A DNA stretch of 64,000 bases from positions 3,154,062-3,218,061 of the forward strand of contig OX638379.1 of NCBI GenBank assembly GCA_951813605.1. The letters run 5' to 3'. The translations under genes were made by a program, and so were the position numbers. Of this stretch, positions 1,135 to 49,570 are shown piece after piece; position 1 is the stretch's first letter; the number at the start of each line of letters is the position of its first letter. The notes beneath the pieces were generated by a model that had not been told where the DNA came from, did not search any database, and saw nothing but the letters and a program-made list of their open reading frames with translations. The stretch comes from an uncultured Bryobacterales bacterium (GTDB lineage: Bacteria; Acidobacteriota; Terriglobia; Bryobacterales; UBA6623).

Positions 1135-2006
1135 GGCAGTAACTCCACCGCCTCGCGCCACCTGAACCGCGCCGCGTTATAGCCACCCTCGAACAGCGGG
1201 CCGTCGCTGTCCTTCGCCCACCGCGACCACAGCACCCACGCGGAGAAGACGCAGCAGAACAACGTTTGGGCCAATCTCGAATGGAAAAAGCGTTCTCCCC
1301 GTTTGCCCTCGAAGCGAGTTCCGAGCGCTTCTTCGAGCGCCGACCGGACCGTCAGGAGCGATGATGCGTTCCCCGCCGCCTCGAAACGGGCCAAGCGGTG
1401 GCGGGCGTATGAAGCGAGGAGCCAGGCCGGATCCTTCGGCTCAGCCAGGGCGGCCCGGTGCGAGAGAGCCCGGCCAATATATTCGCCGAGGCCCGCGCCG
1501 ACTTCGCGCGCGAAGGCACGAGACTTCTCCAGCTTGCTCCAGAAGTCGTCCGCATTCTCCGCCAACCGGAACGTCTCGAGCTTGGCCGGACCACCGGACC
1601 GGACCGTGCCCGCCAGAACGAAGTCGCGCAGGTCCGTTACCAGCACCAGCCGGTAGCGGCCCCAGTAGCGGCTCACTTGATCCGACTTCGCAGTCAGCCA
1701 GGCATCGTCCCCCACCCCCTTCACCTCTACGACGCCTCGGTCCGGGACCTGTCCCTCCCTCGGCCGCCCCTTCTGGACCTGCTTCGCCGTGTAGAGGGCA
1801 TAGTCCGGATGGCCGGCACTCTGATCGGCGCCCTCAAGAACTCAGAACACCTTGGGCTTTAGCCCGTGCCCGACGGCACCGAGAAGGTTCGCCAGTGCCG
1901 GATAGTAGGACCGCTCCCCGGTCCCGCCGCCGGAAGCACGCACCCAGCGGAGATCGGAGAAACACGCTTCCACCGCAGCGATCAGCTTCTTGTTCGGTCC
2001 GGTCAT
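1135..2006 (-). pseudogene. N-terminal part of a type ISP-like restriction-modification / N-6 DNA methylase fusion enzyme, with a nonsense codon and truncation
   Basis: MTGPNKKLIAAVEACFSDL...GERSYYPAL...KPKVF*VL...AGHPDYALY...GVVEVKG (PD...EVK nuclease-like motif), then DDAWLTAKSDQVSRYW...LAQTLF..VFSAW. In-frame TGA; the frame diverges after WREAV, before any methyltransferase motifs. Confidence 0.7.
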
Positions 2007-2150
2007 CGTGCCGTTCTGAGAGTCGGACGCGCCGCCGTCTCAGGGTGCGATCCGGCAACTCCAGAAGATATCACGACAAACGGGTTCGCGGCGGCTGCGC
2101 GGCATCGCCGAAGCAGAAAGTGCGGCGACCGCACCGCGATCCATGATTGC

Positions 2151-13201: not shown

Positions 13202-14890
13202 CTAGTTCTCGCTCAGCAACTCTTCTCTCAAGTCCCGAAACGGGCCGTGAACCGTCTCCTCCCCGGGATCGTATTCCGGATTGCGCCTCGGGAGGTAGCG
13301 TGGCGCAACGTTGGCTTCGAGCCAGCTGTTGAGTTTTTCAAGCAGCTGGCGCGCCTCATCAGGGTGGTCTTCCGCCAGGTCGGTTTGCTCGTATGGGTCC
13401 TGCTCGATGTCGTAAAGGTGCAGCTTGCCGTGCCAGTCCCAGATCAGCTTCCGCGGTCCCTGGCGGATCGCCGAGTGCGGCGGGACATAGGGGCTGCCGT
13501 CGTGATGAGGGATTCCGACGTTGAAGGGGTAGTGCCAGTAGAACTCACGCTCAGGCCACTCGGCACGGTCACCCTCGAACAGCAGCGACTGAAGGTCGAG
13601 TCCGTCGACGCCTTCCGGCACCGAAAACCCAGCCACGCCAGCCAGCGTCGGGAGGATGTCTATCAGGTGGATCGGCTCGCCGGACCAGCGGCCCGCTGCA
13701 ATCCGGCCGGGCCAGCGGACGATGAACGGGACCCGAATGCCACCCTCGTAGAGGTGACCCTTGCCGCCGGTGAACGGGGCATTCTCAGTGACTACATGAC
13801 CCTCTCCGTCTCTTGCATGTTCGACGCCGCCGTTGTCGGAAGTGAAGATAACCAGAGTGCTGTCGTCTAGTCCGAGCTGTTCGAGCGCCTCAAGCAAGCG
13901 ACCCACGGAATCGTCCAGCTGCGCCACCATCGCGGCGTAGATGGCGCTGTGATGGCCATTCCAGCCCCGCATGGCCTTGCCCCGGAAATGGTCGACCCGC
14001 TCGGGCCGGGCCTGCCACGGCCCGTGCACTGCGAAGTGGCTGAAGTAGAGCAGGAACGGCTTGTCGGGCTCCTCCGCACGCTGCTCAAGAAACCGCACCG
14101 CTTGAACAGTCAGATCGGCTGTTAACTCGTCCTGGCCGGTTTCCGCTCCCGGGTCCCCGGCTTCCCATTTCACTTGTGGCATCGACGGGTAAGGCACCTC
14201 CGTTCTCGACCACAGCCGCCGCCAATTGAAGTATGGCGATCCGCCAGCATCGTAGTAAGTCGGCGCAGAAAAGCCAACGTCCGCCGGTTGATACCCCTTT
14301 GCCCCATGCCCGCCGAGGTGCCACTTACCGATAAAGCCGCTGAAGTAGCCTTCCAACATACGGGGCAGAACGGGAATACCTTGCTTGCCGTCGAGCGGGC
14401 CTCCATGAGGAATCGCTGTCAGCGTCGTTCCATTGATCCACGGTTGGCTGTGTGCAATCCGGTCTGCGTGGTGCACGGCGTCCAGCGGATGGTATCCCTC
14501 GGGGGGTGTTTGGCCGGAGCTGTAGTAAGTGGGTGTCCGCGGCGTCGCAGTCGTGACGCCCAGGCTTCCCGAGAAGCGACCGGTGAGCAGGCTGGCCCGT
14601 GACGGGGAGCAGAGCTGCTGAGCGTATGCCTGGCTGAAGCTTAGCCCCGATCGGGCCAGCCGATCGAGATGCGGCGTCTCGTAGTAGCTCCCTATCGTCT
14701 GGCGGAAATGCCGCGCATACGCGGCGATATCCATGATGCCGAGGTCGTCGGCGAGGATGATCACGATGTTCGGCCGGGCCGCGGGATCTGCTTTCTCATT
14801 CGCCTGAGGCGCCTGGCAGCTGGCCCCGTACCACAGCACAGGGACGCACCAAAGGACCTTCGGAAGGGCGCAATGTCGCTTGAGTCTCAT
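13202..14890 (-). CDS. Cys-type sulfatase (arylsulfatase A-like)
   Basis: PNIVIILADDLG, CSPSRASLLTG, GKWHLG, FTSDNGG, GGKGHLYEGGIRVP. Confidence 0.95.
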   Translation of the reverse strand: MRLKRHCALPKVLWCVPVLWYGASCQAPQANEKADPAARPNIVIILADDLGIMDIAAYARHFRQTIGSYYETPHLDRLARSGLSFSQAYAQQLCSPSRASLLTGRFSGSLGVTTATPRTPTYYSSGQTPPEGYHPLDAVHHADRIAHSQPWINGTTLTAIPHGGPLDGKQGIPVLPRMLEGYFSGFIGKWHLGGHGAKGYQPADVGFSAPTYYDAGGSPYFNWRRLWSRTEVPYPSMPQVKWEAGDPGAETGQDELTADLTVQAVRFLEQRAEEPDKPFLLYFSHFAVHGPWQARPERVDHFRGKAMRGWNGHHSAIYAAMVAQLDDSVGRLLEALEQLGLDDSTLVIFTSDNGGVEHARDGEGHVVTENAPFTGGKGHLYEGGIRVPFIVRWPGRIAAGRWSGEPIHLIDILPTLAGVAGFSVPEGVDGLDLQSLLFEGDRAEWPEREFYWHYPFNVGIPHHDGSPYVPPHSAIRQGPRKLIWDWHGKLHLYDIEQDPYEQTDLAEDHPDEARQLLEKLNSWLEANVAPRYLPRRNPEYDPGEETVHGPFRDLREELLSEN

Positions 14891-15277: not shown

Positions 15278-15565
15278 GTGAGTGAATTGGGCGGTGCGGT
15301 GCGGGAAGTGCGAGTGCGTCCGGTGGGCGCGAGCGAGGGGCCGCGCTGGAACGCCCTCATTCGGGAACAGCATTACTTGGGATTTCGCAAGTTCTGCGGC
15401 CGGCGGCTGCTGTATGTCGCCGAGCTTGACGGGCGCCGGCTGGCCTTGGTCGGCTGGCATGCGGCGGCGCTGCATTGCGCGGCGCGCGAGCGCTGGATCG
15501 GCTGGACCCAGCTGCAGCGTCGCGCGTGCCGGGCGCCGAAGCGGGTGTTCCTCTACCCCCTGCTC
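15278..15565 (+). pseudogene. DUF4338 (DruA-like) domain remnant of an IS-associated protein, internally deleted
   Basis: VRVRPV..SE..RWNALIREQHYLGF...GRRLLYVAE...LALVGW.AAALHC.AR.RWIGW jumps directly to the C-terminal PKRVFLYPL. Confidence 0.7.
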
Positions 15566-15777
15566 TCTCGGGCGAGCAACCACTGCCTATCAAGCTATCT
15601 CGTACGTCCACGAAAACGGGGCCAGTCCACTTCGCAACTGCAGGTGAGCCAGATCAAGCCTGCCTTGGCAGCGCCCGGCAGCGAACGTTGGCCGGTCCTG
15701 CCGGCGGCGGCCGTCATCGCCGTTGGGGTTATACTCACCGTCGTCGTTCGCTGGTGAGCATCGCCTGATAAGAGAGG

Positions 15778-16794: not shown

Positions 16795-17229
16795 GAGCTG
16801 CCCTTCAGGCCGATTGCGTGCGATGAACGGCTCGGCCCCTGCTGGCTCACCATTGGACACAATCGAGGAGAATCTTCCTTCCGCTGCGTGACGCGACGGC
16901 CATCCGCATCCAGTTCAGGTCGCGGAGCCACATGCTGCAGGACATTCAATCGCAACGTGCCGACATCGAGCCGGTCGAATCCAGGGATGCTGAAGCTGCA
17001 TGCCAGGCATTGCTGGTTGGGCTAGCGCGTTTGGAACGCCTGGCTTGCGGTACGGCCTTCGTGACGATGCGCCGGCAGGTGCAGCGGCCACAATTGGCGC
17101 AGCGGACGGGAGTCCTGTCTAGGCACGCCGCCGGGCGTCTCGACTTTCGGGAATGCAGACGGGCGAGGTGTTAGTGTGAGCCAAGGTCCGGTGAGTCCAG
17201 CTACGATGGGGGCGGCTTGTGAAACGGGA

Positions 17230-19764
17230 ATGAGCATTGGGCGCTTGATTCTGCTGCTTGTCGTGATGGCCGGTGCAGCCGCCGCCACCGCCTTCGAAGA
17301 CACGGTCCGGCCGATTCTCGAATCCAACTGCCTGCCTTGTCACGGTCAATCCACCCGCAGCAGCGGCTTCTCGGTCAAGGACGCCGAAAGCGTGATCGGC
17401 GGCGGGGCGCGCCACGGCCTTGCCGTCCGCGCAGGGAATCCGGCCGGCAGCGTTCTCATCAAGGCCCTGCGAGGAGAGGGTGCCCTCCAGATGCCCCTCG
17501 GCAAGCCGGCGCTGGCGGAAGCCGACGTGGCTGCGATCGAAGCGTGGATCCGGCAGTTGGACCCGCGGGCCGCCCCGGCGGCTGAAAGAACCCACTGGGC
17601 CTTTGTCCAACCCCGCCGGCAGGTGCCACTTGCGGCAGAGAACATCCAGTGGGCACGGAACGGCATCGACAACTTCATCCTCGCCAAGCTGGAGGAGAAC
17701 GGCCTGGCTCCGGCCCAAGAGGCCAGCCGCGAGACTCTGATCCGGCGTCTCTACTTTGACTTGATCGGTCTGCCCCCTCCCTGGGAGGAGGTCGAAGCGT
17801 TCCTTCGGGACACCTCCCCCGACGCCTACGACAAGCTGGTGGACCGCCTGCTGGCGGACGCGCGGCACGGGGAGCGCTGGGCTCGGCATTGGCTCGATCT
17901 CGCCCGCTACGCCGATACCAGCGGATATGAAGGTGACCCGGAGAACTACCACACCTGGCGCTACCGCGACTACGTGGTGGACGCCTTCAACAAGGACAAG
18001 CCGTACGACCAATTCATCAAAGAGCAGATTGCCGGCGATGAGTTTGTCCGATCGTTGTCCGCCGGGCCGCTTCCCGCGCCCGAACCGGAGCACGTCGTCG
18101 CACTCACCTTCCTGCGGTTGGCGCCGTTCACCGAACCACGCGGCGAGCGAAGCCGCCACGAGCTGCTCAGCGAGATGACCGCGACTGTCAGTTCCGTGTT
18201 CCTAGGGCTCACGGCGGGCTGCGCCCAGTGCCACGACCACAAGTACGACCCCATCCCGATCAGGGATTTTTATCGCCTTAAGGCGTTCTTCGCCACCGTC
18301 TATGTCGCGCCGGCGCGTTCCGGGGATATCTTTCAGATCGGCGGCCCGCAGCCTGCGGAGTTCTATCGCCCGGGCGAGAAGGGATGGGCGGACAAGGAAC
18401 GCGCGAAGTATCAGAGCGAACTCGAGCGGGCCGAAGCGGACTTCGAAGCATTCCAAGCGCCACTGCTTGCAAGGCTCAAAGCCGCGCAGAAGGAGAAATC
18501 CCGGGGAGGCGCGGAAGATGAAGCTGGCGACAAGAAGGAACTGACCTTGGGCGATCTCGCGAGTGCCATCAAGGAAGAAGACGCCGACGGACACGGCTCC
18601 GGCGAGTCAGCACTCTTCGCGTTGGAGGAGAGACGGCGGCACGCCTTGTTCCGGAGGCGCATTCGAGTCCTCAAAGACCAGATCCTGCGCGTCGAGCCGT
18701 CGGCCATGTCGCTCCGCACGATGGATCCGCCGCCCTATGGCCCGAGCGTGCCCACCACCTACGTGCTGAACCGCGGTCAGTGGGACCAGCCCGCCGAACC
18801 TGTGGAGCCTGGGTTTCTCAGTGCCGTCGCCGGTCATTCCAGGCCAGCCGAGCTGATCCAGGTGGACCGCTACCAGCGTCACCCCGGCCACGGCCGCCGG
18901 ATGACACTTGCGAACTGGATTGCGAGTCCGGAGAACCCGCTCGCGGCCCGGGTGATGGTGAACCGACTCTGGCAATACCGCTTTGGGCAAGGCATCGTGG
19001 AAACCTCCAGCGACTTCGGCAAGAACGGCGCGCGGCCCACCCATCCAGACCTGCTGGACTGGCTCGCCGTGCGCTTCGTCGATGAAGAATGGAGCCTGAA
19101 AGCGATGCATCGGCTCATGGTGACCTCGAGCACCTACCGTCAAGCTTCGCGCCGGCCTGATGATCGAGCGGAGGAAACAGATTCGGCGAACCGGCTCCTG
19201 TGGCGCTTCCCTCGCCTGCGCCTGGAAGGGGAGCTGATCCGAGACAGCGTACTGGCCGTGAGCGGCCGCCTGAATCCGGCCCAAGGAGGCCCGCCCATCT
19301 CTCCGCCCCTGCCCGCCGGCCTGGAGAATGAGTTGGACAGCCAGTACGAGAACAATTTTTGGGAAGCGTCCGACGGCGAGCAAGCGCGCAAGCGCAGCCT
19401 GTATGTCTTCCAGCGGCGTTCCCTGAGCCTGCCAATCCTGCAGACCTTCGATGCACCGGCGTTGGACGCTTCCTGCGAACGGCGTCGCACGTCCGTCACG
19501 CCGCTGCAGGCGCTGTCTCTCTACGACGGTGATTTTGTGAACGAGGAAGCACGGTACCTTGCCGCACGGGTGCGGGAGCACGGCGGCGGGCAGCGAGGCA
19601 GCCAGATTCGCCACGCGTTTCAGCTCGCGCTCAGCCGCAGCCCTTCCGCAGAGGAGAGCGCGCAGGTGATGGAGTTCCTGGCCAAGGCCGCATCGGAAGA
19701 AGAAGGGCTAGTCGGCTTGTGCCGGGTCCTGCTCAACAGCAATGAGTTCGTCTATGTCAACTAA
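17230..19764 (+). CDS. Planctomycete cytochrome c + DUF1549 (PSCyt2) + DUF1553 (PSD1) protein
   Basis: Signal peptide; CLPCH; HWAF; [14 protein letters not shown]; [19 protein letters not shown]; [11 protein letters not shown]; [15 protein letters not shown]; HPDLLDWLA. Confidence 0.93.
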
Positions 19765-21220
19765 GCCCCGAAAGGCCCCCGTCCGCTTGTCGAAATCCCG
19801 ACGGGATTTCCTCTGTAGCGCCTGGAACGGCATCGGCAGCCTGGCCCTTCTCGACATTCTGGCCGACGAGCTGGAAGCTGGACCGCCTGCACTGAGCCCT
19901 CTCGCCCCCCGCGAGCCGCATCTGCGCCGCAAGGCCAAGCACTGCATCTTTCTCTTCATGGGCGGCGGCGTGAGTCACATCGAGTCCTTCGACTACAAAC
20001 CCGCTCTTCGGAAGTACGCGGGCGAGCGCCTCCCCCGTCCCGAGGGCCTGTCCGGCGAAGTGGCGACCGCGCTCGATGCGCCCCACACCGCAATGCCGTC
20101 GCTCTGGGATTTCAAGCAATATGGCGAGTCCGGCCGCCATGTATGCTCGCTCTTCCCGCATCTGGCCCAGCACGTCGATGAGATGGCGTTTGCCTACGGT
20201 ATCCGGCTTGACAACAACAATCACGGGCCGGCGACGCTGCACCTGAACACGGGCTCTCAATTCCCCGGAAGCCCCTCGGTAGGCTCTTGGATTGGCTATG
20301 GACTGGGCACCCCCAACCAAGACCTGCCCGGCTATGTGGTCATTCAGGATCCAAGAGGCGGGCCCGTCAACGGTTCGGCGGTTTGGGGCAACGGGTATCT
20401 TCCCGCCAGCTACCAAGGGGTCCGATTCCGCTCCTCCGGCCCCCCGATTCTCGATCTAGAGCGGCCAGCCGGCCTCTCCCGCGAGCAGCAGCGCAGGGAG
20501 TTCGACCTGCTGAAGTGGCTCAACACCAAGCACGGCGAGCAGCAGCCGGGCGCCTCCGAGCTCGAGGCCCGCATCAACGCCTACGAGTTGGCGTTTCGCA
20601 TGCAGACGGCAGCCCCGGAGGTGGTGGGCCTCGGCAGGGAATCCGAGGCGACTAAGAAGCTGTATGGCCTCGACAATCCCGACACCGCCGGGTTCGGGCG
20701 GCAATGTTTGCTGGCGAGGCGGCTGGTGGAGCAAGGCGTCCGCTACACGCTCTTGATTCACGGCGAGAGGATCGGTCAATCCAGTTGGGACCACCATACG
20801 GACGTCAAGGGCCGCATGCCCCAGAATGCGGTGGAGGTCGACAAGCCGGTGTCAGCCCTGCTCGCGGATCTGAAGAGCCGCGGCCTGCTCGAGGAGACGC
20901 TCGTCGTTTGGGCCTCTGAGATGGGCCGCACGCCCTACGTTCAGCAAAACGACACCCCGGACCCCAAGCCGGGCCGCGACCACAATCAGAACGCGCTCGT
21001 GATGTGGATGGCCGGAGGGGACGTCAAGGGCGGATCGTCGGTCGGTGCCACGGATGAATTCGGCATCGGCGGGATCAACCCCATTCCGCTCCACGACGTT
21101 CACGCAACGATCCTGGACCTTCTCGGCTTGGACGACAAGCGGCTGACCTACTTGCACCAGGGCCGATACCGCAAGCTGACGGATATCGGCGGGCACGTGC
21201 TCGGAGAGCTCATCGCGTGA
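19754..21220 (+). CDS. DUF1501 domain protein (Tat signal)
   Basis: SRRDFL; AKHCIFLFMGGGVSHIESFDYKP; GSWIGYGLG; FGRQCLLARRLVEQGVR; WDHH; EMGRTP; GRDHN. Overlaps the PSD1 gene end. Confidence 0.93.
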   Translation: MSTKPRKAPVRLSKSRRDFLCSAWNGIGSLALLDILADELEAGPPALSPLAPREPHLRRKAKHCIFLFMGGGVSHIESFDYKPALRKYAGERLPRPEGLSGEVATALDAPHTAMPSLWDFKQYGESGRHVCSLFPHLAQHVDEMAFAYGIRLDNNNHGPATLHLNTGSQFPGSPSVGSWIGYGLGTPNQDLPGYVVIQDPRGGPVNGSAVWGNGYLPASYQGVRFRSSGPPILDLERPAGLSREQQRREFDLLKWLNTKHGEQQPGASELEARINAYELAFRMQTAAPEVVGLGRESEATKKLYGLDNPDTAGFGRQCLLARRLVEQGVRYTLLIHGERIGQSSWDHHTDVKGRMPQNAVEVDKPVSALLADLKSRGLLEETLVVWASEMGRTPYVQQNDTPDPKPGRDHNQNALVMWMAGGDVKGGSSVGATDEFGIGGINPIPLHDVHATILDLLGLDDKRLTYLHQGRYRKLTDIGGHVLGELIA

Positions 21221-29868: not shown

Positions 29869-32800
29869 ATGCAACGCGCTTTCGCTTTGGGAGCATTCCT
29901 CTACAGTCTCTCGCTGCAGGGGCCGGCCTCGGGTGAGGAAGCCCAAGGCGCGGCGGTCCTGGAACGCCGCTGCCTACAGTGCCACGGCCCTGCAACCCAG
30001 ATGGGCGAGCTGGACCTGTCGTCCCGCGAAGGCGCGCTGAAGGGCGGCACGCGAGGCCCGGCTTTGGCGCCCTCCGATCCAGCCGGGAGCCTCCTGCTCT
30101 CCCGGGTGGCCGCGGAGGAGATGCCCCCGGAATCGCCCCTCTCCAGCAGCGACAAGGAAACGCTCCGGGAGTGGATCGCCTCGGGAGCGGCTTGGCCGGA
30201 ACGGATCGAAGAGCGCCGCGCGGGAACCGACTGGTGGTCGCTCCAGCCGCTGCGCGAACCGTCGCCCCCTCGCCCGCGAACGGCGACCCGGCAATGGATG
30301 GCGTCACCGGTCGACCGCTGGGTACTCGCCGGCCTTGAGGAAGCAGGCTTGCGACCCGCGCCGGAAGCCGGCCGGCGCGACCTCATTCGGAGAGCCTCGT
30401 TCGCCCTGACGGGCTTGCCCCCGGAGCCGGAGGAAGTGGATGCATTCGAGAAGGACAGTTCCCCGGACGCCTACGAAACGCTGTTGGACCGGCTCCTGGC
30501 CTCGCCGCGCTACGGGGAGCGCTGGGCCCGCCACTGGCTAGATCTCGTCCGGTACGCGGAAAGCGAAGGATTCGAGCGGGATCTTCCGCGCTATCACGCC
30601 TGGCCGTACCGCGACTACGTCATCCGCAGCTTCAACCGCGACAAGTCCTACCTGCAGTTCGCGCGCGAGCAGATGGCCGGCGACGTCATGGAGCCGGCGA
30701 CCCGCGACGGCGTGGTGGCGACAACCATGCTGACCCTCGGTCCGGTCGACGCCGTGGGCCTGACCTCCGCCATACCGCAAGAGCGGGCATCGATTCGAGA
30801 GGACATGCTGGAGGAGATGCTCGGCACCGTCACGCAGACCTTCCTGGGCCTCACGGTGAATTGCGCGCGCTGCCACGACCACAAATTCGATCCGATCCTC
30901 CAGGAAGAGTACTACCGGATGAAATCCGCCTTCCAAGCGGTATGGCCGCCGACGCGGCCTGTTCCAGAGCAGGGCCTCGATGTCCTGTTTCCCCACGGGA
31001 GCCCGCTGCTGGCCCCCGAGGAGAAGCGCTCGCGCGACGCGCGACGCGCCAGCCTCGAGAGCCGGACTGAGGCCGCCCGGGCCGCACTGGGCGACCTTTA
31101 TCGCGGCGCGCGACCGGCGGAGACCTTTGATGACGCGCCCGTCCCGCTGGCGCGCTGGACCTTCGAAACCGACGGCCGCGCCGATTTCGCGCCGCTCCAC
31201 CTGAAGCTGGTGGGCCAGGTGGAGACAAGCGAAGGGAAACTGCGCCGGAAAGCCCTTCCAGAGGATGCGCCCGGCGACGAGCTTGTCGAAGAGGACGGCC
31301 CCGACGGCGGGCCAGGTTTCGGCGTCAGCCGCATGTTGGGCAAGGAAATCAGGGCCAAGACGCTAGAGGCCTGGCTGGACGTGCAAGGCATGCCGGAGAC
31401 GGCTGCGACCGTGATGGAAATCCGCGGGCTGAGCGGATATCGCGGCGCCTCGGTCGACGGGATCCGATTCGTCGCCGGAGACAATCCTCGCTGGGACAAC
31501 AGCTCGATCGGGAGCTTCCGGTCCAAGGACACCGGCGGTCCGCCGGAGAAGTTCGAGCCCGGCGCGCAGGTTCACGTCGCCATCGCGTACGACGGGGACG
31601 GCACGATCACGGTGTTCCGTAACGGAGCGGTCTACGGGGAGCCCTACAAGCCCGACAACGGCATCCCCGCCGGGCGGCTGCAGGTCTATCGAGCCGGGGA
31701 CGCGCTGGTGCGCTTTCCCGCGAGCGAGCACTTGCATGTGGCTGAGGCGCGGCTCTACGACTTCGCCCTTTCGGGCGACGAAGTCGAGGCGTCGTTCCGC
31801 AAGGGAATTCGAGAATTCCCGCCGGCCGACCTGCTGGCTCGGATGAATTCCGCGGATAGCCGGCGGGTCGCGGAATTGGAAGAGGAGCTGGAAGGCTTGC
31901 GGCGCGAGCTCTCAAGCATTCCGGAGCCCGAGCTCGCGCACGGGGCCGTCATCCAGGGGGTAGAGCCCACCTACGTATTGATCCGCGGCTCCGTCGCCCA
32001 GCCGGGGAAGAGGGTCGAGGCCGCCGGCCTCTCCTGCGTCAGCGGCCTGTCTGCGGAGCTGGACCTAGCAGCGGATGCTTCCGAGGGGGCGCGCCGGAAG
32101 GCAATCGCGGAATGGATCGCGAACCCCCGAAACCCGCTATTCGCGCGGGTGATCGTCAATCGGCTGTGGCAGCAGCACCTCGGGCGCGGGTTCGTCGACA
32201 ATCCCAGCGACTTCGGTTACAACGGCGGCCCGCCGAGCCATCCGGAACTGCTGGACTGGCTGGCCTCCGACCTCGTGCGGAACGGCTGGAGCCTGAAGGC
32301 ATTGCACAAGCGCATCCTGATGTCCCGGACCTACAGGCAGGCCTCGCGGTTCGACGAGGCTGCCGCCTCGGCGGATGCCGACAATCGCCTTCTGTGGAGG
32401 TTCACGCCCCGCCGCCTTGATGCCGAATCGGTGCGGGACGGCATGCTGGCTGTGGCGGGCGACCTGAACGGCTCGATGCACGGGCCAAGCTTCCGTCCGT
32501 TTGAGTACGGTGAGAAGCGGGGGAGCCTCAAGAGCTACGTCCTGACCTCCGAGGACACCCCCGCGATGCGCCGCCGGACGGTCTACCGCATGAACGTCAT
32601 TACCGGCGGCGACCCCATGCTCGAGGCCCTCGACTGCCCGCTGCCCTCGGTGAAGGCTCCGCGCCGGCGGTCCACCACCACTGCCCTGCAGGCCCTCAGC
32701 CTGATGAACAATGCATTCGTCCAGCAGCGGGCCCGCGGGTTCGCCCGCCGCCTGCAGGAAGAGGCCTCGAGCCTCGACGGCAGGATCAGGCGGGCGTTCG

Positions 32801-32928
32801 ACCTGGCGTTCGGCCGCAAGCCGGACGACCGGGAGATGGATTCGAGCCGGCCGCTCGTGGAGCGGCACGGACTGGATGCTCTTTGCTGGGGCATCCTCAA
32901 TGCCAGCGAGTTCCTGTATGTCCGCTAG
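29869..32928 (+). CDS. Planctomycete cytochrome c + DUF1549 + LamG-like insert + DUF1553 protein
   Basis: CLQCH; [19 protein letters not shown]; CARCHDHKFDP; central KTLEAW...VHVAIAY...TVFRNG...EARLYDFALS (ConA/LamG-like); ARVIVNRLWQ; HPELLDWLA. Confidence 0.9.
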   Translation: MQRAFALGAFLYSLSLQGPASGEEAQGAAVLERRCLQCHGPATQMGELDLSSREGALKGGTRGPALAPSDPAGSLLLSRVAAEEMPPESPLSSSDKETLREWIASGAAWPERIEERRAGTDWWSLQPLREPSPPRPRTATRQWMASPVDRWVLAGLEEAGLRPAPEAGRRDLIRRASFALTGLPPEPEEVDAFEKDSSPDAYETLLDRLLASPRYGERWARHWLDLVRYAESEGFERDLPRYHAWPYRDYVIRSFNRDKSYLQFAREQMAGDVMEPATRDGVVATTMLTLGPVDAVGLTSAIPQERASIREDMLEEMLGTVTQTFLGLTVNCARCHDHKFDPILQEEYYRMKSAFQAVWPPTRPVPEQGLDVLFPHGSPLLAPEEKRSRDARRASLESRTEAARAALGDLYRGARPAETFDDAPVPLARWTFETDGRADFAPLHLKLVGQVETSEGKLRRKALPEDAPGDELVEEDGPDGGPGFGVSRMLGKEIRAKTLEAWLDVQGMPETAATVMEIRGLSGYRGASVDGIRFVAGDNPRWDNSSIGSFRSKDTGGPPEKFEPGAQVHVAIAYDGDGTITVFRNGAVYGEPYKPDNGIPAGRLQVYRAGDALVRFPASEHLHVAEARLYDFALSGDEVEASFRKGIREFPPADLLARMNSADSRRVAELEEELEGLRRELSSIPEPELAHGAVIQGVEPTYVLIRGSVAQPGKRVEAAGLSCVSGLSAELDLAADASEGARRKAIAEWIANPRNPLFARVIVNRLWQQHLGRGFVDNPSDFGYNGGPPSHPELLDWLASDLVRNGWSLKALHKRILMSRTYRQASRFDEAAASADADNRLLWRFTPRRLDAESVRDGMLAVAGDLNGSMHGPSFRPFEYGEKRGSLKSYVLTSEDTPAMRRRTVYRMNVITGGDPMLEALDCPLPSVKAPRRRSTTTALQALSLMNNAFVQQRARGFARRLQEEASSLDGRIRRAFDLAFGRKPDDREMDSSRPLVERHGLDALCWGILNASEFLYVR

Positions 32929-34324
32929 CACCACCCGCAGGCGCATGCTGCTGGATGCCGCCGGGGGCTTCGGGTGGGCTGCCCTGGCTTCCCTGCTGCC
33001 GCGGGAGGCGCTCGGCGCGTCGCCAGGAGAGCACAGCCCCTCGAAGGGACATCACTTCCCCGCCCGCGCCAAGCGGGTCATCCAGATCTTCGCGGTCGGC
33101 GGAATGAGCCACGTCGACACCTTCGACTTCAAGCCGGAGCTGCAGAAGCGGGACGGCACCCCCTATTCGATGCCGACCTTCTTCGGGCAGGGCGGGAATC
33201 TGCGCGGCTGCCCGTGGGAGTTCAGGCAGCACGGCGAGAGCGGCCTGTGGCTGAGCGGCCTCCTGCCGCAGCTTTCGAAGCAGGCGGACAGGCTCACCGT
33301 GGTTCAAAGCATGGTCTCCAAGAGCGCGAACCACATGCCGGCGGTGGCTCAGATGAACACCGGATTCATCCTGACCGGCTTCCCGGCCATGGGGGCGTGG
33401 GTGACGTACGGGCTCGGGTCGGAGAACGAGAACCTGCCCGCTTTCGTCGTTCTGCCCGACCCGAACAGCCACCCTTGGGGCGGCTCGGCGCAATGGACCA
33501 ACGGCTTTCTCCCGGCGGCCGTGCAAGGCACGGCGTTCCGGACGCACGCCGACGGGGATCCCGTGCCGGACCTGAAGACTCCGGAGGGGGTTTCCGGCGA
33601 GGCGCGCGCGGACGCCGCGAGATGGTTGCGCGAGATGAACCGCAGGTACGCGGAGGCCCATCCCGGCGATTCGAGCCTCGAGGCCCGAGTCCGCATGTAC
33701 GAGATCGCCGCCAAGATGCAGCTCAGCGTGCCCGAGATCGCGGACCTCAACCTCGAATCGGAAGCGACCCGGCGCCTGTACGGGCACGGCGAGGAGGGCA
33801 CTGCGGATCTGGCGAAGAATTGCCTGCTGGCCCGCCGGCTAGTCGAGCGCGGCGTGCGGTTCGTGCAGATCTACCACGGCGGCGCGGGCAAGAGCTGGGA
33901 CGCGCACGGCAACTTGGTCACCAACCACGAGGAGATGGCGCTGGAATACGACCGGCCCGTTGCCGGCCTTGTGGAGGACCTGCACGCCCGGGGCCTGCTG
34001 GAGGACACGCTGGTCCTCGGCGTGACGGAATTCGGTCGCACGCCCGTATCGCAGGGAAGCGGCAAGACTGCGGGCCGCGACCACCACCCCAGCTGCTTCA
34101 GCTGCTGGATGGCAGGAGCCGGGCTGCCGTCCGGCAGGACCTACGGCCTGTCGGACGACCTGGGCTACAAGCCGGCGGAGAATCCGGTCACGATCTACGA
34201 CCTGCATGCAACCGCGCTGCACCTGCTAGGACTCGACCACGAGCGGCTGACCTTCTATCACAACGGCATCAACCGCCGCCTGACGGACGTGCACGGAAGA
34301 GTCGTCGAGGGATTGCTTGGCTGA
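32918..34324 (+). CDS. DUF1501 domain protein (Tat-like signal)
   Basis: TRRRML; AKRVIQIFAVGGMSHVDTFDFKP; GAWVTYGLG; CLLARRLVERGVRFVQ; EFGRTP; GRDHH. ATG at 32918 overlaps the upstream gene. Confidence 0.92.
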   Translation: MSASTTRRRMLLDAAGGFGWAALASLLPREALGASPGEHSPSKGHHFPARAKRVIQIFAVGGMSHVDTFDFKPELQKRDGTPYSMPTFFGQGGNLRGCPWEFRQHGESGLWLSGLLPQLSKQADRLTVVQSMVSKSANHMPAVAQMNTGFILTGFPAMGAWVTYGLGSENENLPAFVVLPDPNSHPWGGSAQWTNGFLPAAVQGTAFRTHADGDPVPDLKTPEGVSGEARADAARWLREMNRRYAEAHPGDSSLEARVRMYEIAAKMQLSVPEIADLNLESEATRRLYGHGEEGTADLAKNCLLARRLVERGVRFVQIYHGGAGKSWDAHGNLVTNHEEMALEYDRPVAGLVEDLHARGLLEDTLVLGVTEFGRTPVSQGSGKTAGRDHHPSCFSCWMAGAGLPSGRTYGLSDDLGYKPAENPVTIYDLHATALHLLGLDHERLTFYHNGINRRLTDVHGRVVEGLLG

Positions 34325-34475: not shown

Positions 34476-35273
34476 ATGGTGAAGACCGAGCGCGAGCACG
34501 CCGCCGACATAGTCCGTGTCGGCAAGCTAGTTTTCGACAAGGGCTGGGTTGCCGCCAACGATGGCAACATCTCGATCCGCCTTGACGATGAGCGCATCAT
34601 GTGCACGCCGACCGGCGTGTCGAAGGGCATGCTGCATATCGACGACATCATCATCGTCGACTATGCGGGGGAAAAGGTCTCCGGGCGCATGCAGCGCACC
34701 TCCGAGATCAAGATGCACCTGAAGATCTACGAGATTCGGGAGGACATCGATTCCGTGGTCCACGCGCACCCGCCGGTCGCCACGGGATTCGCGGCGGCCG
34801 GCAGGGCGCTGGACACGGCGCTGCTTCCGGAAGTCGTGATCGGGCTGGGCTGCGTGCCCCTGGCGGCGTACGGGCTGCCCGGCACCGACGCCCTGACCGA
34901 GCCGATGCTGCCGCTGATCCCTCGCTACGACGCCCTGCTTCTTGGCAATCACGGCGCCGTCAGCTACGGCACCGACGTCCTGCAGGCGTACTTCCGCATG
35001 GAGACGGTGGAGCATTTCGCCCGCATCAACTTCGTCGCCGAGATGCTGGGCGGAGCCCGCGCGCTGCCGCGCCTGGAAGTGGACAAGCTGTTCGAATCGC
35101 GGGGGCGCTACGGAGTGGCCTCGAAGGCTACGCAGCAGCCGGGCTGCCCGGTTTCAGCGGAGGATGTCGCCCAGTCGGCACCGGACAGCCAAATGGGCGA
35201 CAATGGTTTCTACGTCACCCGGGACGAATTGATCCAGTTGCTGGAAGACGCGATCCGGGCCAGAGGAGGATGA
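34476..35273 (+). CDS. Class II aldolase/adducin-family protein (FucA-like), BMC-associated
   Basis: [38 protein letters not shown] (Zn ligands); extra C-terminal linker and helix. Confidence 0.92.
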
Positions 35274-35280
35274 TCGATTC

Positions 35281-35562
35281 ATGGGTGAGGCCCTCGGATT
35301 AATTGAAACGCGGGGATTCGTCTCGCTAGTCGAGTCCGCCGACGCCGCCGTGAAGGCGGCAAACGTCACGCTGGTCGGATGGGAGAAGATCGGATCCGGC
35401 TACGTCACAGTTCTGATGCGCGGCGACGTGGCTGCGGTCAAGGCGGCAACTGACGCCGGGGCCGCCGCGGCCCGGCGCGTCGGCGAGCTGATCTCCGTCC
35501 ACGTCATTCCGCGCCCGCACGGCAACTTGGACCAGATCTTCGCCATTTCGCCCTCCGAGTAG
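35281..35562 (+). CDS. BMC-H shell hexamer protein (PduA/EutM-like)
   Basis: ALGLIETRG...[10 protein letters not shown]...[21 protein letters not shown]...SVHVIPRPH. Confidence 0.97.
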
Positions 35563-35598
35563 CGGAGGCTGCATCCCGAACGGGAGACGCTGGGCTCT

Positions 35599-35877
35599 AT
35601 GCTTCTGGCGCGAGTCGTGGGCAATGTCGTAGCCACGCGTAAGGATCCGAGGCTGGAGGGCAAGAAGCTGCTGGTCCTGCAGCACGTCGCTCCGGACGGC
35701 AGGTCCCGCGACAGCTACGTGGTAGCGCTTGACACGGTCGGAGCCGGAGCCCGGGAAACCGTGATTTGCGTCTCCGGCAGTTCCGCCCGCATGGCAAGCG
35801 GCATGAAGGGCACCCCGGTCGACACGGCCGTCGTAGGCATCGTAGATGACGTGAACCTGCTTCCCGGAGGCAGCTGA
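35599..35877 (+). CDS. BMC-P vertex pentamer (EutN/CcmL family) 1
   Basis: MLLARVVGNVVATRKD..LEGKKLL...VVALDTVGAG..ETV...GSSAR...PVDTAVVGIVD. Confidence 0.95.
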   Translation: MLLARVVGNVVATRKDPRLEGKKLLVLQHVAPDGRSRDSYVVALDTVGAGARETVICVSGSSARMASGMKGTPVDTAVVGIVDDVNLLPGGS

Positions 35878-36146
35878 TGCACTTGGGGCGGGTCATCGGG
35901 AATGTGTGCGCGACGGTCAAGGACCCGCAGCTCGAAGGAGTGAAGCTCCTCCTCGTCCAGCCCTTGAACGCTGACGGTACCAACACGGGCATCCCTATTG
36001 TGGCGCTGGATGCGGTGGGCGCGGGGGCCGGGGAGACAGTCTACTGGTCGGGGCGGCGCGAAGCGTGCCTGGCGTTCGATCCCCAAGTGCCGTCGGATGC
36101 GAGCGTGACCGGGATCGTCGATACGGTGTCAGGGCCGGGGCCATGA
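35877..36146 (+). CDS. BMC-P vertex pentamer (EutN/CcmL family) 2
   Basis: MHLGRVIGNVCATVKD..LEGVKLLLVQP...IVALDAVGAG.GETV...DASVTGIVD; TGATG coupling. Confidence 0.95.
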   Translation: MHLGRVIGNVCATVKDPQLEGVKLLLVQPLNADGTNTGIPIVALDAVGAGAGETVYWSGRREACLAFDPQVPSDASVTGIVDTVSGPGP

Positions 36147-36424
36147 TCCTCAGCAAGGTCGTGGGCGACGTGGTCTCGACGTGCAAGCATCCTACGCACG
36201 AGGCGATCAAGCTGCTCCTGGTACGGCGGATCAATGCCGAAGGAGAGGAGCGCGGGGCGCCGTTGGTGGCCGTGGACGTGCTCGATGCGGGCGTCGGGGA
36301 CACCGTGCTGCTCACGCTTGACGGCTGGGCGGCGATGACCGCCGTGCAACGCATGAAGGCGCCGATCGATGCCGCCGTGATCGCCATCGTTGACTCCATT
36401 GAATGGGACGGCGGGGAGCCTTGA
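36143..36424 (+). CDS. BMC-P vertex pentamer (EutN/CcmL family) 3
   Basis: MILSKVVGDVVSTCKH...KLLLV...VAVDVLDAGVGDTVL...PIDAAVIAIVD; ATGA overlap (track ORF starts 36065). Confidence 0.93.
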   Translation: MILSKVVGDVVSTCKHPTHEAIKLLLVRRINAEGEERGAPLVAVDVLDAGVGDTVLLTLDGWAAMTAVQRMKAPIDAAVIAIVDSIEWDGGEP

Positions 36425-41884: not shown

Positions 41885-43354
41885 ATGAAACGCGCTCTTT
41901 TTCTGCTTGTCGTCCTGGCATTCCTTCCGTCTTGCGCCCAGTCGCCAGCCGACCCGCCGAACATCGTGTGGATCTTCTCCGAGGACCAGTCGGACGATTA
42001 CGGCCCGTACGGAGAGTCGCTCGCCAAGACGCCCCATATCGACAAGATGGCGGCGGAGGGAGCGATGTTCACGCGGGCCTTCGTCACCGCCCCGGTTTGC
42101 TCGCCGTCGCGGTCCGCGCTGGTCACCGGCATGTACCAGACCACGATCGGCGCGCACAACCACCGCAGCGGCAGGGGAGAGCGGAAGATCCGCCTGCCCG
42201 GGGACGTCGAGCCCGTCCCGTCGATCCTGCGGCGGGCCGGCTACTACGTGACCAACGGAGGGTACCGCGAAAACGGCAATCTGGCCCGGGGCAAGACGGA
42301 CTACAACTTCGAGTACGCCGAGGATCTGTACGACGGGGCCGACTGGTCCGGACGAGCCGGGGGGCAGCCCTTCTTCGCTCAAGTCCAGTTGCGAGGCGGC
42401 AAGCTGCGCAACCAGCGCACGCTGGAACCGCGCGAAGGCGTGCGCACCAACGGCATTCCCCCGGACAAGGTCCAGCTGCCGCCCTATTACCCTGACCATC
42501 CCGAGCTGCGCGCGGACTGGGCGCAATATCTCGAGTCGGTGGAGCACGTCGACTGGGAGGTCGGGCAGATCCTCGCGCGCCTGGAGGAGGAGGGCGTCGC
42601 GGACAACACCGTCGTTTTCTTCCTCACGGACCACGGCGTGAGCCACGCGCGCGGCAAGCAATTCCTCAGCGAAGAGGGCATCAAGGTGCCGCTGATCGTG
42701 CGAGCGCCGGGCCGTATCGAGCCGGGCATGGTGCGCGAAGACCTCGTGGCCCATATCGACGTGGCAGCGTCCTCGCTCGCATTCGCCGGCATCGAGATCC
42801 CCGGCTGGATGGAAGGCCGGCCGCTGTTCGGGCCGCAAGCCGAGCCGCGCGATTACGTCGTCTCGGCACGGGACCGCTGCGACGAGACCGTGGACCGCAT
42901 CCGCAGCGTGCGCACTGCCCGATTCAAGTACATCCGCAACTTCGTGCCGGAGCGGCCGCACCTGCAACCCAATCGCTACAAGGACAGCAAGGCCATCATC
43001 AAGGCGCTCCGCGGCTTGCGGGCCGAAGGCGGCCTGTCCCCGGAGATCGAGAAGATGCTTTACGCGCCCCGACCGGAGGAAGAGCTCTATGACCTTGCGG
43101 AGGACCCTTGGGAAATGACCAACCTCGCCGGCGACAGCGAGCACGAGAAGACGCTTCTGGAAATGCGCTCGATTCTGGAGCGCTGGGTCGAGCAAACCGG
43201 GGACCGGGGCCAAGTCTTCGAGACTGCGGCGGAATACGGCTCGGACATGGCGGCGTACCGGCGCGGCCAGCAAGGGCCCCAAGCGGAGATTCTCGAGCGG
43301 AACATCGCCGACGTCGAGGCTTGGCGGGCAATGCGAGCAGGCGCGGGCCAGTGA
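41885..43354 (+). CDS. Cys-type sulfatase (probable lipoprotein)
   Basis: LAFLPSC lipobox-like; PNIVWIFSEDQ, CSPSRSALVTG, DHG, RDRCDE, EELYDL.EDP.E. Confidence 0.93.
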   Translation: MKRALFLLVVLAFLPSCAQSPADPPNIVWIFSEDQSDDYGPYGESLAKTPHIDKMAAEGAMFTRAFVTAPVCSPSRSALVTGMYQTTIGAHNHRSGRGERKIRLPGDVEPVPSILRRAGYYVTNGGYRENGNLARGKTDYNFEYAEDLYDGADWSGRAGGQPFFAQVQLRGGKLRNQRTLEPREGVRTNGIPPDKVQLPPYYPDHPELRADWAQYLESVEHVDWEVGQILARLEEEGVADNTVVFFLTDHGVSHARGKQFLSEEGIKVPLIVRAPGRIEPGMVREDLVAHIDVAASSLAFAGIEIPGWMEGRPLFGPQAEPRDYVVSARDRCDETVDRIRSVRTARFKYIRNFVPERPHLQPNRYKDSKAIIKALRGLRAEGGLSPEIEKMLYAPRPEEELYDLAEDPWEMTNLAGDSEHEKTLLEMRSILERWVEQTGDRGQVFETAAEYGSDMAAYRRGQQGPQAEILERNIADVEAWRAMRAGAGQ

Positions 43355-43381: not shown

Positions 43382-43387
43382 TACAAT
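43382..43387 (+). promoter_or_regulatory. -10 element TACAAT 6 nt before the ATG of the OsmC-like gene (leaderless-type)
   Basis: CTACAATAGCCGCATG; no Shine-Dalgarno sequence between the -10 and the start. Confidence 0.45.
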
Positions 43388-43393
43388 AGCCGC

Positions 43394-43858
43394 ATGGCCG
43401 ACCTGATCCACACATCCAAGATCAAGATCTTTCAAGATCAGCCTCCCGAGCGGCGCGCCTATGTCGAAGGGTTCGACGCGCCGCTTGAGTTCGGCGTGCA
43501 CGGCGGGATCAAGCATTTCTACCGCATGGAGCCGAAAAGGGACCTGCCCGCGACGCTGGACCACATGATCGCCGCGGTCGGCGGTTGACTGACCGGCACT
43601 CTGTCAGGGGCCCTGGCAGTTCGCAGGATTCCGAATCACCCCGACCGCGTCTCGACGGATGTCGAAGGCGACATAGAGAATGTCGACGGCGTCATACGCA
43701 TCACGTGCATCCGCGTGCACTACAACTTGAAGATCCCCAAGGGCGCGGGCGACAGGGCGCAGCGCGCTCTCGACACGCATCAATCGAAATGCCCTGCTGC
43801 GGTCAGCGTTCGGGACTCGATCGCTATCGAGACCAGCGCCGACATCGAGGAAATCTGA
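43394..43858 (+). CDS. OsmC-like protein with an in-frame TGA at the conserved Cys (predicted selenocysteine)
   Basis: One frame of 155 codons: ...PATLDHMIAAVGG-U(TGA 43586-43588)-LTGTLSGAL...DVEGDIENVDGVIRITCIRVHY...SKCPAAVSV...; second OsmC Cys intact; downstream hairpin present. Confidence 0.82.
43601..43619 (+). promoter_or_regulatory. Candidate bacterial SECIS hairpin
   Basis: CTGTCAGG-GGC-CCTGGCAG forms an 8-bp stem (one G-U pair) with a G-led loop, starting after a 12-nt spacer downstream of the TGA. Confidence 0.65.
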
Positions 43859-48190: not shown

Positions 48191-49570
48191 TCAGCGGTAG
48201 GGGAGATCGGACCGCTCGGCCCAGCTATCGCCAGTCCGCTCGAACCACTCCATCGTGAGCGCGTCGAGCCGTGCCTGCAGTTCCGCATGCTGCGGCTTGC
48301 CTGCCAAGTTGTCCATCTGGAACGGATCCTCGGCGTTGTCGTAAAGCAGCCAGGGCTCGTTCTCGCGCCTCGCGTAGGTGTAGCGCTCCGTGCGCAGTCC
48401 CCGCCAGGGGGGAAACTGCGATTGCTCGGTCGGAGTGTAGCTCTGCGCGTACACGGACTCGGGAGCGTCCGCTCCGGGGGTGCCGCCATGCTCGGGCGCT
48501 AGCAGGTGCGCGGAGAGATCGAGCCCCGAAATCCCGTCCGGGCTCGGCATCCGCGCCATGCCCAGCAGTGTCGGCACGATGTCGACGTGCGAGAAAGGCA
48601 GCGAGAGGCTCCGGCCGGCCGGCACGGCCGCGGGGTAGTGCAAGATGCCCGGCACCTGGAGCGATTCCGCCCACGGCTTGCGCTTGAGGACCGTTCCATG
48701 GGAGCCGAGCATGTCTCCGTGGTCCGAGGTGATCAGGATGATCGTGTTCTCGAACTGCCCGGTCTCCTTGAGGGCTTCGACAATGCGTCCCACCTCGTCG
48801 TCCAGAAAGGTGATCGCGGCGTAGTAGCCGGCAATGTCCTGGCGGCTGCCCCTGGCGGGTCTGGGACCTCGCTCGACGGGCCCTTTCCAGTTGGCTCGCA
48901 TCTTGAGCATGTCCGGGTCGTAAAGGTTCATGTACCGGGGCGGCGCGACGTAGGGATTGTGCGGCGGGCCCCACTGGACGTATCCCAGGAACGCCTTCGA
49001 GGGGTCCTGGCGAATGAAGTCGATTGCCTCGTCGGTGAAGGTCGAGGCCGAATAGCCGTTGATCGGAATCGGCTCCGGATCGTCCCGGAAGTACTCCATG
49101 TTCCAGTACCTGTGCGAGCAGATGTTGGCCGCCCAGAACTCGAAGCCCTGCCGTCTTTCCTGCTTGACAAACCCCGGCAGGCGCTTGCCGCCTTCCAAAT
49201 GCCACTTGCCGACAAAGCCGGTGCGGTAGCCGTTGTCGCGCGCTACCTCGGCGATGGTGACTTCCTTGTCCGGCAAGGGCGCGTCATTGACGTCGACGCC
49301 GTGCTCGTGGCCGAACCGGCCAGTCAGCAGCGTGGCGCGCGCCGGGCAGCAGACCGGGCAGTTGGCCGTCACGTTGCGCAGCAGGGCGCCGCCCGCGGCG
49401 AGGGCGTCCATGTTCGGCGTCTTCACCTCGGCGTTGCCCATGGCGCCGAGATCCATCGCCCGCCACTGGTCGGGCATCAGCACGAGGATGTTGGGCTTCG
49501 CGAGCTGGGGGCCGCACGCGCCTGCCAGGGCCCCTCCGGCAGCTGCCAGGAAAGTCCGTCGGTTAAGCAT
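48191..49570 (-). CDS. Cys-type sulfatase (Tat signal)
   Basis: NRRTFL; PNIL.LMPDQWR, CCPARATLLTG, GKWHL, TSDHGDMLGSHG. Confidence 0.93.
   Translation of the reverse strand: MLNRRTFLAAAGGALAGACGPQLAKPNILVLMPDQWRAMDLGAMGNAEVKTPNMDALAAGGALLRNVTANCPVCCPARATLLTGRFGHEHGVDVNDAPLPDKEVTIAEVARDNGYRTGFVGKWHLEGGKRLPGFVKQERRQGFEFWAANICSHRYWNMEYFRDDPEPIPINGYSASTFTDEAIDFIRQDPSKAFLGYVQWGPPHNPYVAPPRYMNLYDPDMLKMRANWKGPVERGPRPARGSRQDIAGYYAAITFLDDEVGRIVEALKETGQFENTIILITSDHGDMLGSHGTVLKRKPWAESLQVPGILHYPAAVPAGRSLSLPFSHVDIVPTLLGMARMPSPDGISGLDLSAHLLAPEHGGTPGADAPESVYAQSYTPTEQSQFPPWRGLRTERYTYARRENEPWLLYDNAEDPFQMDNLAGKPQHAELQARLDALTMEWFERTGDSWAERSDLPYR

Follow-up and report, generated by a model that had tools for sequence, protein, structure and literature searches.

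Is a TGA codon that interrupts a bacterial reading frame at the site of a catalytic cysteine a stop codon, a lesion or a signal to insert an amino acid, and, if the last, which one? The question is raised by a gene at 43394-43858 on the forward strand of a 64,000-nucleotide (nt) stretch of DNA from an uncultured Bryobacterales bacterium (contig OX638379.1 of assembly GCA_951813605.1). This whole stretch is hereafter the window, and coordinates refer to it unless another locus is named. On comparative grounds, the gene very probably is a genuine selenocysteine (Sec)-encoding gene of the OsmC superfamily, in which UGA 43586 is read as Sec65. The elements on which this interpretation depends are as follows.

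43394..43858, + strand: complete coding sequence for a predicted selenoprotein of the OsmC superfamily (154 residues, Sec65), terminated by the TGA at 43856-43858
43499..43513, + strand: codons of H36-G-G-I-K40, part of the N-terminal motif GVHGGIKxFY, a marker of the subfamily
43583..43619, + strand: candidate bacterial Sec insertion sequence (SECIS), synonymously frozen, comprising codons -1 to +10 relative to the TGA plus the first base of codon +11
43586..43588, + strand: in-frame TGA, read as the putative Sec codon (residue 65), where OsmC/Ohr enzymes have their first (peroxidatic) Cys
43790..43792, + strand: Cys133 (TGC), presumed to act as the resolving Cys, within the K-C-P motif; invariant in alignments A1 and A3

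The ATG at 43394 opens a single frame of 154 sense codons and a stop, with only one internal TGA (43586-43588). A mechanical listing of open reading frames (ORFs) cuts this frame into a 64-residue ORF (43394-43588) and a downstream remainder. In the window protein, the TGA lies in the context HMIAAVGG-(TGA)-LTGTLSGAL, and the second Cys lies within QSKCPAAVSV. With Cys placed at the TGA, residues 55-147 matched the Pfam OsmC family (PF02566) with a score of 40.4 bits against a gathering cut-off of 27.5 (E = 4e-10). According to phmmer, the TGA column aligned with the Cys of AGCF in Thermus thermophilus OsmC (1ukk), and Cys133 with that of GCPVS, in a weak match (E = 0.019); we take these two 1ukk residues to be the peroxidatic and resolving Cys of OsmC/Ohr. 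The original prediction for this locus had read the split gene through TGA 43586 as a full 154-residue OsmC/Ohr-like protein, with the TGA at the first catalytic Cys position, an intact KCP motif, no other lesion and a hairpin 12 nt past the TGA. The frame, the Pfam match and the 1ukk alignment agree with this description, and the hairpin is present at 43601-43619.

To examine the TGA column across homologues, we searched 5.8 billion proteins and, at the DNA level, one genome per species from 185,579 species. The protein search matched full-length homologues of ∼156 residues together with many fragments of 85-112 residues, which either stop at AAVGG or start directly past it. At the TGA column, nine full-length homologues had Cys and six had an apparent Trp. 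Three of the latter were examined as DNA, and in all three the codon was TGA; these loci, on contigs of ∼1 kb, do not give their database protein under translation table 11. The Trp is thus an artefact of translating TGA with genetic code 4 on short contigs. Trp at this column had been named at the outset as the observation that would speak against Sec; what the alignment held instead was Cys (TGC) or TGA, including at each 'Trp' that was checked.

The scan of species genomes confirmed 506 relatives. Among the best 80 of these (80 loci in 80 species genomes, their proteins 54-88% identical to that of the window), every one of the 80 loci had the TGA and no other in-frame stop. Judged by record title, these relatives belong mostly to the Bryobacterales and other Acidobacteriota, and also to Methylomirabilota, Rokubacteria, Nitrospinota and KSB1. 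Overall, TGA occupied the column in 84 of the 84 sequences compared (the window, the 80 genome loci and 3 metagenome contigs; 82 distinct sequences), and TGC occupied it in four Cys-form genes (L084-L087). When 1.84 billion cluster representatives (50%-identity clusters) were searched with a profile, 405 proteins were retrieved at E ≤ 1e-10, the best 150 of which were classified by alignment. Cys stood at the column in 59 of these 150 and Trp in 2; a further 44 were N-terminal fragments ending exactly at the column, and 27 were C-terminal fragments starting just after it. The second Cys, in the Cys133 column, was present in 77 of the 84 representatives among the best 150 that cover the position. 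As judged from these alignments, the family is a mix of predicted Sec forms and Cys forms, with approximately 4 in 10 clusters being TGA forms.

We then considered whether the sequence downstream of the TGA is translated. The 82 distinct TGA sequences were split into two sets of 41, the window's clade, which shares the window hairpin, and more distant relatives, and the ratio of nonsynonymous to synonymous substitution (dN/dS) was calculated by the method of Nei and Gojobori. In the window's clade, dN/dS was 0.081 upstream of the TGA (dS of 1.22) and 0.087 over codons +11 to +42 (dS of 1.12). The dN/dS values obtained on either side of the TGA were 0.08-0.12. The codon directly 3' of the TGA was CTG in the window and in all 41 sequences of its clade, in which the first in-frame ATG, GTG or TTG after the TGA occurs 21 to 74 codons on. 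The region past the TGA is under selection at the protein level and has no separate start, and is therefore reached by decoding the TGA. Together, these comparisons indicate that the TGA is translated through. As an ordinary stop, TGA ends the selenoprotein gene itself and, by a rough call, ∼24 of 53 ORFs in the window that look coding. Because TGA serves as a normal terminator in this genome, the genetic code is not reassigned.

In Escherichia coli, the fdhF-type SECIS is a stem-loop that starts ∼11 nt after the UGA, carries a G in its apical loop and is bound by SelB. The window contains a hairpin, CUGUCAGG-GGC-CCUGGCAG, at 43601-43619, whose first base lies 12 nt past the TGA and whose loop begins with GG (GGC or GGGCC). 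Within the window's clade, synonymous codon entropy was ∼0 over codons -1 to +10 and rose again at codon +11. The 8-codon mean entropy in this frozen block, 0.24, was the minimum for the gene, as compared to ∼1.1 along the gene. Similarly, dS over codons +1 to +10 was 0.097, ∼12-fold under that of the rest of the gene (1.1-1.2). The codons fixed in the block include TCA, GCA, ACT and GGT, which are rare choices in a genome of 66% GC. Finally, the last base of the hairpin is also the last base of the frozen block (nt -3 to +34 around the TGA). The candidate element resembles the fdhF-type SECIS in its distance from the UGA, its GG-starting loop, its location inside the coding sequence and its synonymous freezing. 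By contrast, it has no sequence similarity to that element, no Rfam match and a stability not above chance, and its register moves between clades (nt 16-34, 23-39 or 15-32).

In the distant relatives, the window hairpin is absent and another, GCGCGC-UGGAA-GCGCGC, occurs at nt 23-28/34-39 after the TGA, with 82.5% of its positions paired. It has undergone compensatory changes from G-C to A-U at 27/35 and from C-G to U-A at 26/36, with 17 double-change cells. This pairing and covariation were matched by 0 of 500 shuffles, and controls in which the stem was slid along the sequence were 10-57% paired. A third register, B2 (15-20/27-32), was found in Methylomirabilota-type sequences with weaker support. 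RNAalifold also proposed a longer stem (nt 4-34, starting at 43589), which would account for why codons +1 and +2 do not vary within the window's clade; this stem showed no covariation in the distant relatives and was kept as an alternative. The SECIS of the window would accordingly be either the 19-nt hairpin or the longer stem. Our reading is that an RNA element right after the UGA appears to be under selection in every clade and that its fold has been turned over.

Several observations weigh against Sec insertion at this locus. With respect to the RNA, neither stretch that was folded proved more stable than its controls. For the 65 nt from the TGA, these were dinucleotide shuffles (z = +1.07); for the 45 nt past the TGA, they were synonymous recodings that preserve the peptide, with a median z of -0.09 (window's clade), -0.56 (distant relatives) and +0.6 (the four Cys forms). 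No Rfam SECIS family matched at either gathering or permissive thresholds. The hairpin register is not family-wide: there are at least three registers, and covariation supports one of them. Moreover, one Cys-form homologue also forms a hairpin after the column. With respect to the machinery, a Pfam scan of ∼56 ORFs found no SelA, SelB or SelD domain in the window, and the sole tRNA in its 64 kb is a tRNA-Pro, with no tRNA-Sec. Finally, a query with SelA of Solibacter, followed by contig look-ups, linked no SelA gene to an assembly bearing the OsmC(U) gene.

The Cys-form hairpin is that of L084 (2742-3212, TGC at the column), CUCUGGC...GCUAGAG, in the same place past the Cys codon; it may be left over from a recent Sec-to-Cys switch or may have arisen by chance.

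Hairpins come cheaply by chance here because a sequence of 66% GC encodes Gly, Ala and Leu. Stability, which was no better than that of shuffles or recodings and just slightly weaker in the four Cys forms, was therefore dropped as evidence. The hairpin counts as evidence because it is frozen at synonymous sites, and not as a remarkable fold; it is the constancy of the TGA and the loss of synonymous variation around it that lie far beyond chance. For the SECIS-like hairpin that had been proposed at the outset, the position was upheld, and a GG-starting loop and synonymous freezing were added; a stability beyond chance was not found.

The selenium machinery is known from the window's order. For Solibacter usitatus, the supplement of PMC1794560 lists the sequences of SelA, SelB and two FdhA proteins that contain Sec. 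This paper counted three selenoprotein families in Acidobacteria, and Solibacteraceae is, by taxonomy, a family within Bryobacterales. The Sec trait is thus present in this order. As a query, Solibacter SelA retrieved at least 7,999 proteins at E ≤ 1e-50; the top 120 were 69-100% identical to it, and one was named as coming from an Acidobacteriia metagenome-assembled genome (MAG). SelA and SelB also co-occur in most sponge-symbiont bins, where they were noted as enriched (PMC5649159). The close relatives of the window gene include those of MAGs SB0661_bin_30, SB0664_bin_31 and RHO3_bin_36/37/40; from these names, the closest relatives appear to be sponge-associated. The sequences flanking 60 related loci contained no tRNA-Sec, nor did those next to three SelA loci. 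These SelA loci lie on Solibacter-like acidobacterial contigs in which selA adjoins a divergent tRNA-Pro(CGG), followed by efp.

L088, 5868-7332: selA, divergent tRNA-Pro(CGG), efp
L089, 5868-7335: selA, divergent tRNA-Pro(CGG), efp
L090, 6667-9326: selA, divergent tRNA-Pro(CGG), efp

In L090, genes for a phage-type integrase and an HNH protein occur just past the tRNA-Pro, which suggests an element integrated at the tRNA.

To consider the function of the protein, we examined its fold and its closest named families. The AlphaFold2 model of a natural Cys homologue, P0002, which is 53% identical to the window protein, had a mean predicted local distance difference test score (pLDDT) of 84.5 and a predicted TM-score (pTM) of 0.80. 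According to Foldseek, the top 50 matches of this model in the PDB were all OsmC/Ohr proteins, with a probability of 1.00 and 12-20% identity. As modelled, the family adopts the OsmC/Ohr fold, and both redox Cys positions are conserved in it. Biochemically characterized two-Cys members of this fold, namely OsmC and Ohr, are hydroperoxide reductases. Given that the TGA column matches the peroxidatic Cys and Cys133 the resolving one, hydroperoxide reductase is, by analogy, the most likely function of the window protein. Relative to OsmC/Ohr (E. coli OsmC, 1nye and 1qwi; 1ukk; Ohr, 1n2f and 1zb9), the window's family is alike in fold, in both Cys positions and, likely, in chemistry. It differs in its low identity (12-20%), in scores that fall under the TIGR03562 and TIGR03561 cut-offs and in the predicted presence of Sec in place of the peroxidatic Cys. 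More specifically, no family member exceeded 35 bits against the models for OsmC (TIGR03562), Ohr (TIGR03561) and SACOL1771 (TIGR03563), whose cut-offs are 85.8, 88.85 and 166.15 bits, respectively; the window protein scored 21.6 bits against the OsmC model.

These scores, far under the cut-off of every functionally named OsmC subfamily, leave some room for a genuine selenoprotein that catalyzes a different redox reaction of thiols or selenols, for example disulfide reduction or the transfer of sulfur or persulfide. Consistent with such a reaction, the family has its own HGGIKxFY motif, in which the H36, G37, G38 and I39 columns are invariant and K40 almost so, and its neighbours (a sulfatase and the convergent rapZ-hpf) include no conserved redox partner gene. 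We nevertheless consider it unlikely: both catalytic Cys positions of OsmC/Ohr are kept within the OsmC/Ohr fold, the characterized members of which reduce hydroperoxides. The original prediction of a Sec-dependent peroxidase is supported: Sec by the Cys/TGA alternation, the read-through and the constraint on the RNA, and the likely peroxidase step by homology.

The following mechanism is proposed for the putative hydroperoxide reductase. When a ribosome reaches the UGA, SelB-GTP-Sec-tRNA(Sec) would bind an RNA element that occupies the following ∼35 nt (43589-43619, codons +1 to +11), and this complex would deliver Sec in place of termination. The TGA at 43856, which is followed by no such element, would terminate the protein. 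In the folded enzyme, Sec65, at the N-terminus of a long helix, would attack the hydroperoxide to yield a selenenic acid; the latter would be resolved by Cys133 of the K-C-P motif to form an intramolecular selenenylsulfide, which would in turn be reduced by a dithiol donor, either a lipoylated protein or a thioredoxin-type protein. We infer from sequence the residue inserted (Sec rather than another amino acid), the dependence on SelB, the precise fold of the SECIS, the substrate and the reductant.

The read-through described above could in principle be achieved without Sec, either by a suppressor tRNA (allo-tRNA) or by a tRNA-Sec-like tRNA(Cys) acting via SelB, in which case residue 65 would be Cys, Ser or another amino acid. 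Allo-tRNAs occur in Acidobacteria and are maybe missense or nonsense suppressors, and a selC*-type tRNA(Cys) is maybe an opal suppressor in other phyla (PMC5389517). Sequence comparison reveals read-through and not the identity of the residue, and the window is devoid of tRNA-Sec. However, the column alternates solely with Cys in a redox active site, the classic signature of Sec/Cys exchange, and the constraint on the RNA right after the UGA fits a SECIS and not general suppression. In addition, TGA is a normal stop here and in many neighbours, so suppression would have to be site-specific; the TGA is also kept in several phyla from which no allo-tRNAs have been reported, and SelA and SelB exist in the order. 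Decoding as a residue other than Sec is therefore quite improbable, although such read-through makes up most of the doubt that is left about Sec.

A second possibility is that the gene is split, with a 64-residue N-terminal and an ∼89-residue C-terminal peptide being produced by TGA-ATG stop-start coupling and assembling into an OsmC fold. An ATG directly follows the TGA in 22 of the 41 distant relatives, and gene callers list the halves as separate proteins, as in the 89-residue 'OsmC family protein' of NCBI (P0011). However, Met at +1 is also ordinary in Cys forms, as in the C-M-M-G-T of P0012, and the break falls exactly at the catalytic Cys column, such that the active-site residue would be absent from both halves. 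In the window and the 41 sequences of its clade, the CTG after the TGA, the distance to the first start and the dN/dS of codons +11 to +42 speak against such coupling. A split gene is highly improbable, and read-through with selection on both sides of the TGA excludes it for the window's clade. The same reasoning excludes a pseudogene, whose probability, like that of a sequencing error, is negligible: a lone in-frame stop does resemble a nonsense mutation, and another gene of the window, at 1026-2007(-), is interrupted by a TGA and most likely decayed, but the same TGA recurs in all 84 sequences (82 distinct) with no other lesion and with purifying selection on both sides.

The window protein was also compared with the OsmC-like selenoproteins already described. 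An OsmC-like selenoprotein was reported from the Sargasso Sea in 2005, with three sequences, assignment to COG1765 and a UxxT motif (PMC1088965; Zhang, Fomenko & Gladyshev). It was found again in the Global Ocean Sampling (GOS) data, with five sequences (PMC2398784), and is mentioned in reviews up to 2026. Like it, the window protein matches PF02566, has its predicted Sec at the first-Cys site that opens the long helix, has Cys homologues and combines a UGA with a downstream element. However, the two differ in redox motif (U-L-T-G-T in the window and U-[LM]-x-G-T in its family, versus U-L-L-T in the Sargasso protein, such that the window's family lacks U-x-x-T), in the context of the second Cys ((K/G)-C-P versus G-C-F) and in length (154 versus 137 residues). 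Moreover, HGGIKxFY is invariant in the window's family, whereas none was seen in the Sargasso OsmC-like sequence. In BLASTP, the window protein and Sargasso AACY01145085 were 33% identical over 43 residues, with the Sec columns aligned. The NCBIfam model NF041052, 'OsmC-related (seleno)protein' (COG1765/YhfA-like), has a cut-off of 95 bits. As a positive control, AACY01145085 scored 157.4 bits; the window protein scored 17.0 bits, and ten diverse relatives, including both Sec and Cys forms, scored 18-25 bits, all below the cut-off.

By these sequence measures, the window protein is a member of a separate, unnamed OsmC subfamily and not of the NF041052 family. The original prediction of an OsmC-like selenoprotein is refined in this respect: the protein shares its superfamily and Sec position with the described OsmC-like family but stands outside it. 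The literature searched names one OsmC-like selenoprotein family only, and a large-scale survey may have lumped this clade under it. We tentatively suggest, at somewhat under an even chance, that this is a second Sec-using OsmC family, as yet unrecognized and apart from the marine YhfA-like one of 2005, in which SECIS elements have been replaced clade by clade. If so, a Sec family would be widespread in Acidobacteriota, especially Bryobacterales and apparently sponge-associated lineages, and in Methylomirabilota, Rokubacteria, Nitrospinota and KSB1. A UGA that is fixed while hairpins switch register by clade would also constitute a natural series for SECIS turnover within a coding sequence. 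On the same reading, the mRNA of the window's clade may be leaderless too.

The last suggestion arises from the sequence upstream of the start codon, which contains the following feature.

43382..43387, + strand: TACAAT, a -10-like hexamer 6 nt before the ATG, without a Shine-Dalgarno sequence

A TACAAT-type hexamer occurs at equal spacing in ∼30 of the 41 window-clade loci (for example, L004, L009 and L013), and the distant relatives have GGAGG where the window's clade has this hexamer. Upstream of the gene, a full sigma-70 consensus was not found, there being no match to a -35 element. Because the hexamer lies 6 nt before the ATG and there is no Shine-Dalgarno sequence, these data suggest that in the window's clade the selenoprotein gene is transcribed from a promoter of its own and yields a leaderless mRNA. 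With respect to gene order, a sulfatase gene lies 39 nt upstream on the same strand, and the selenoprotein gene is followed by the convergent rapZ and hpf. The order of sulfatase, selenoprotein gene and rapZ-hpf is kept in 27-34 Bryobacterales loci.

We also scanned the window for other TGA codons flanked by coding-like sequence. The scan returned the target gene, the stop of the sulfatase (43352) and the TGAs at 37677 and 1844(-) only. That at 37677 was rejected as a selenoprotein candidate on the basis of its downstream composition, which is not coding-like, and that at 1844(-) was rejected as part of a decayed remnant. The latter ORF is truncated, lies near a DDE transposase gene (3309-4712) and is most likely such a remnant; its TGA contrasts with the conserved one of the OsmC gene. 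The other features annotated in the window are as follows.

1026-2007, - strand: ORF with an in-frame TGA at 1842-1844, corresponding to the N-terminal ∼150 of ∼1100 residues of a type IIG restriction-methyltransferase, in a weak match (PADLOC, E = 0.0013)
2151-2707, - strand: adjacent DUF5615 and DUF433 genes (Pfam)
13202-14890, 41885-43354 and 48191-49570: three sulfatases
15278-15757, + strand: short ORF with a weak partial match to Druantia DruA (Pfam PF14236, E = 4.8e-8)
17176-21220 and 29869-34324, + strand: two pairs of PSCyt2/PSD1 (DUF1549/DUF1553) and DUF1501 genes (Pfam)
34476-36424, + strand: bacterial microcompartment cluster, in which genes for a class II aldolase and a single BMC-H shell protein are joined by three consecutive EutN/CcmL vertex protein genes

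The DUF5615 and DUF433 genes presumably correspond to COG4634/COG2442. These two COGs were described as a putative toxin-antitoxin pair that is present in Solibacter usitatus as well as in 16 sponge-symbiont bins (PMC5649159). The pair at 29869-34324 also has a Planctomycete cytochrome c domain, and the Pfam family names suggest genes typical of Planctomycetes. The PSCyt2/PSD1 pairs and the three sulfatases together point to a lifestyle of degrading sulfated polysaccharides, as far as gene content can tell. The microcompartment cluster is followed by an oligogalacturonate-lyase-like gene.

The finding bears first on annotation. At least one GenBank record has the gene as a truncated fragment (the 89-residue P0011), and 71 of the best 150 representatives break at the TGA. 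Recognizing the subfamily would correct many records and add a selenoprotein family for Acidobacteriota and several candidate phyla. With respect to mechanism, the understanding of Sec decoding itself is unchanged; matched Sec and Cys forms and at least three hairpins behind one fixed UGA would be useful for studying Sec/Cys exchange and the evolution of the SECIS. With respect to biology, a selenium-dependent antioxidant enzyme would be added to a lineage whose closest public relatives are apparently sponge-associated.

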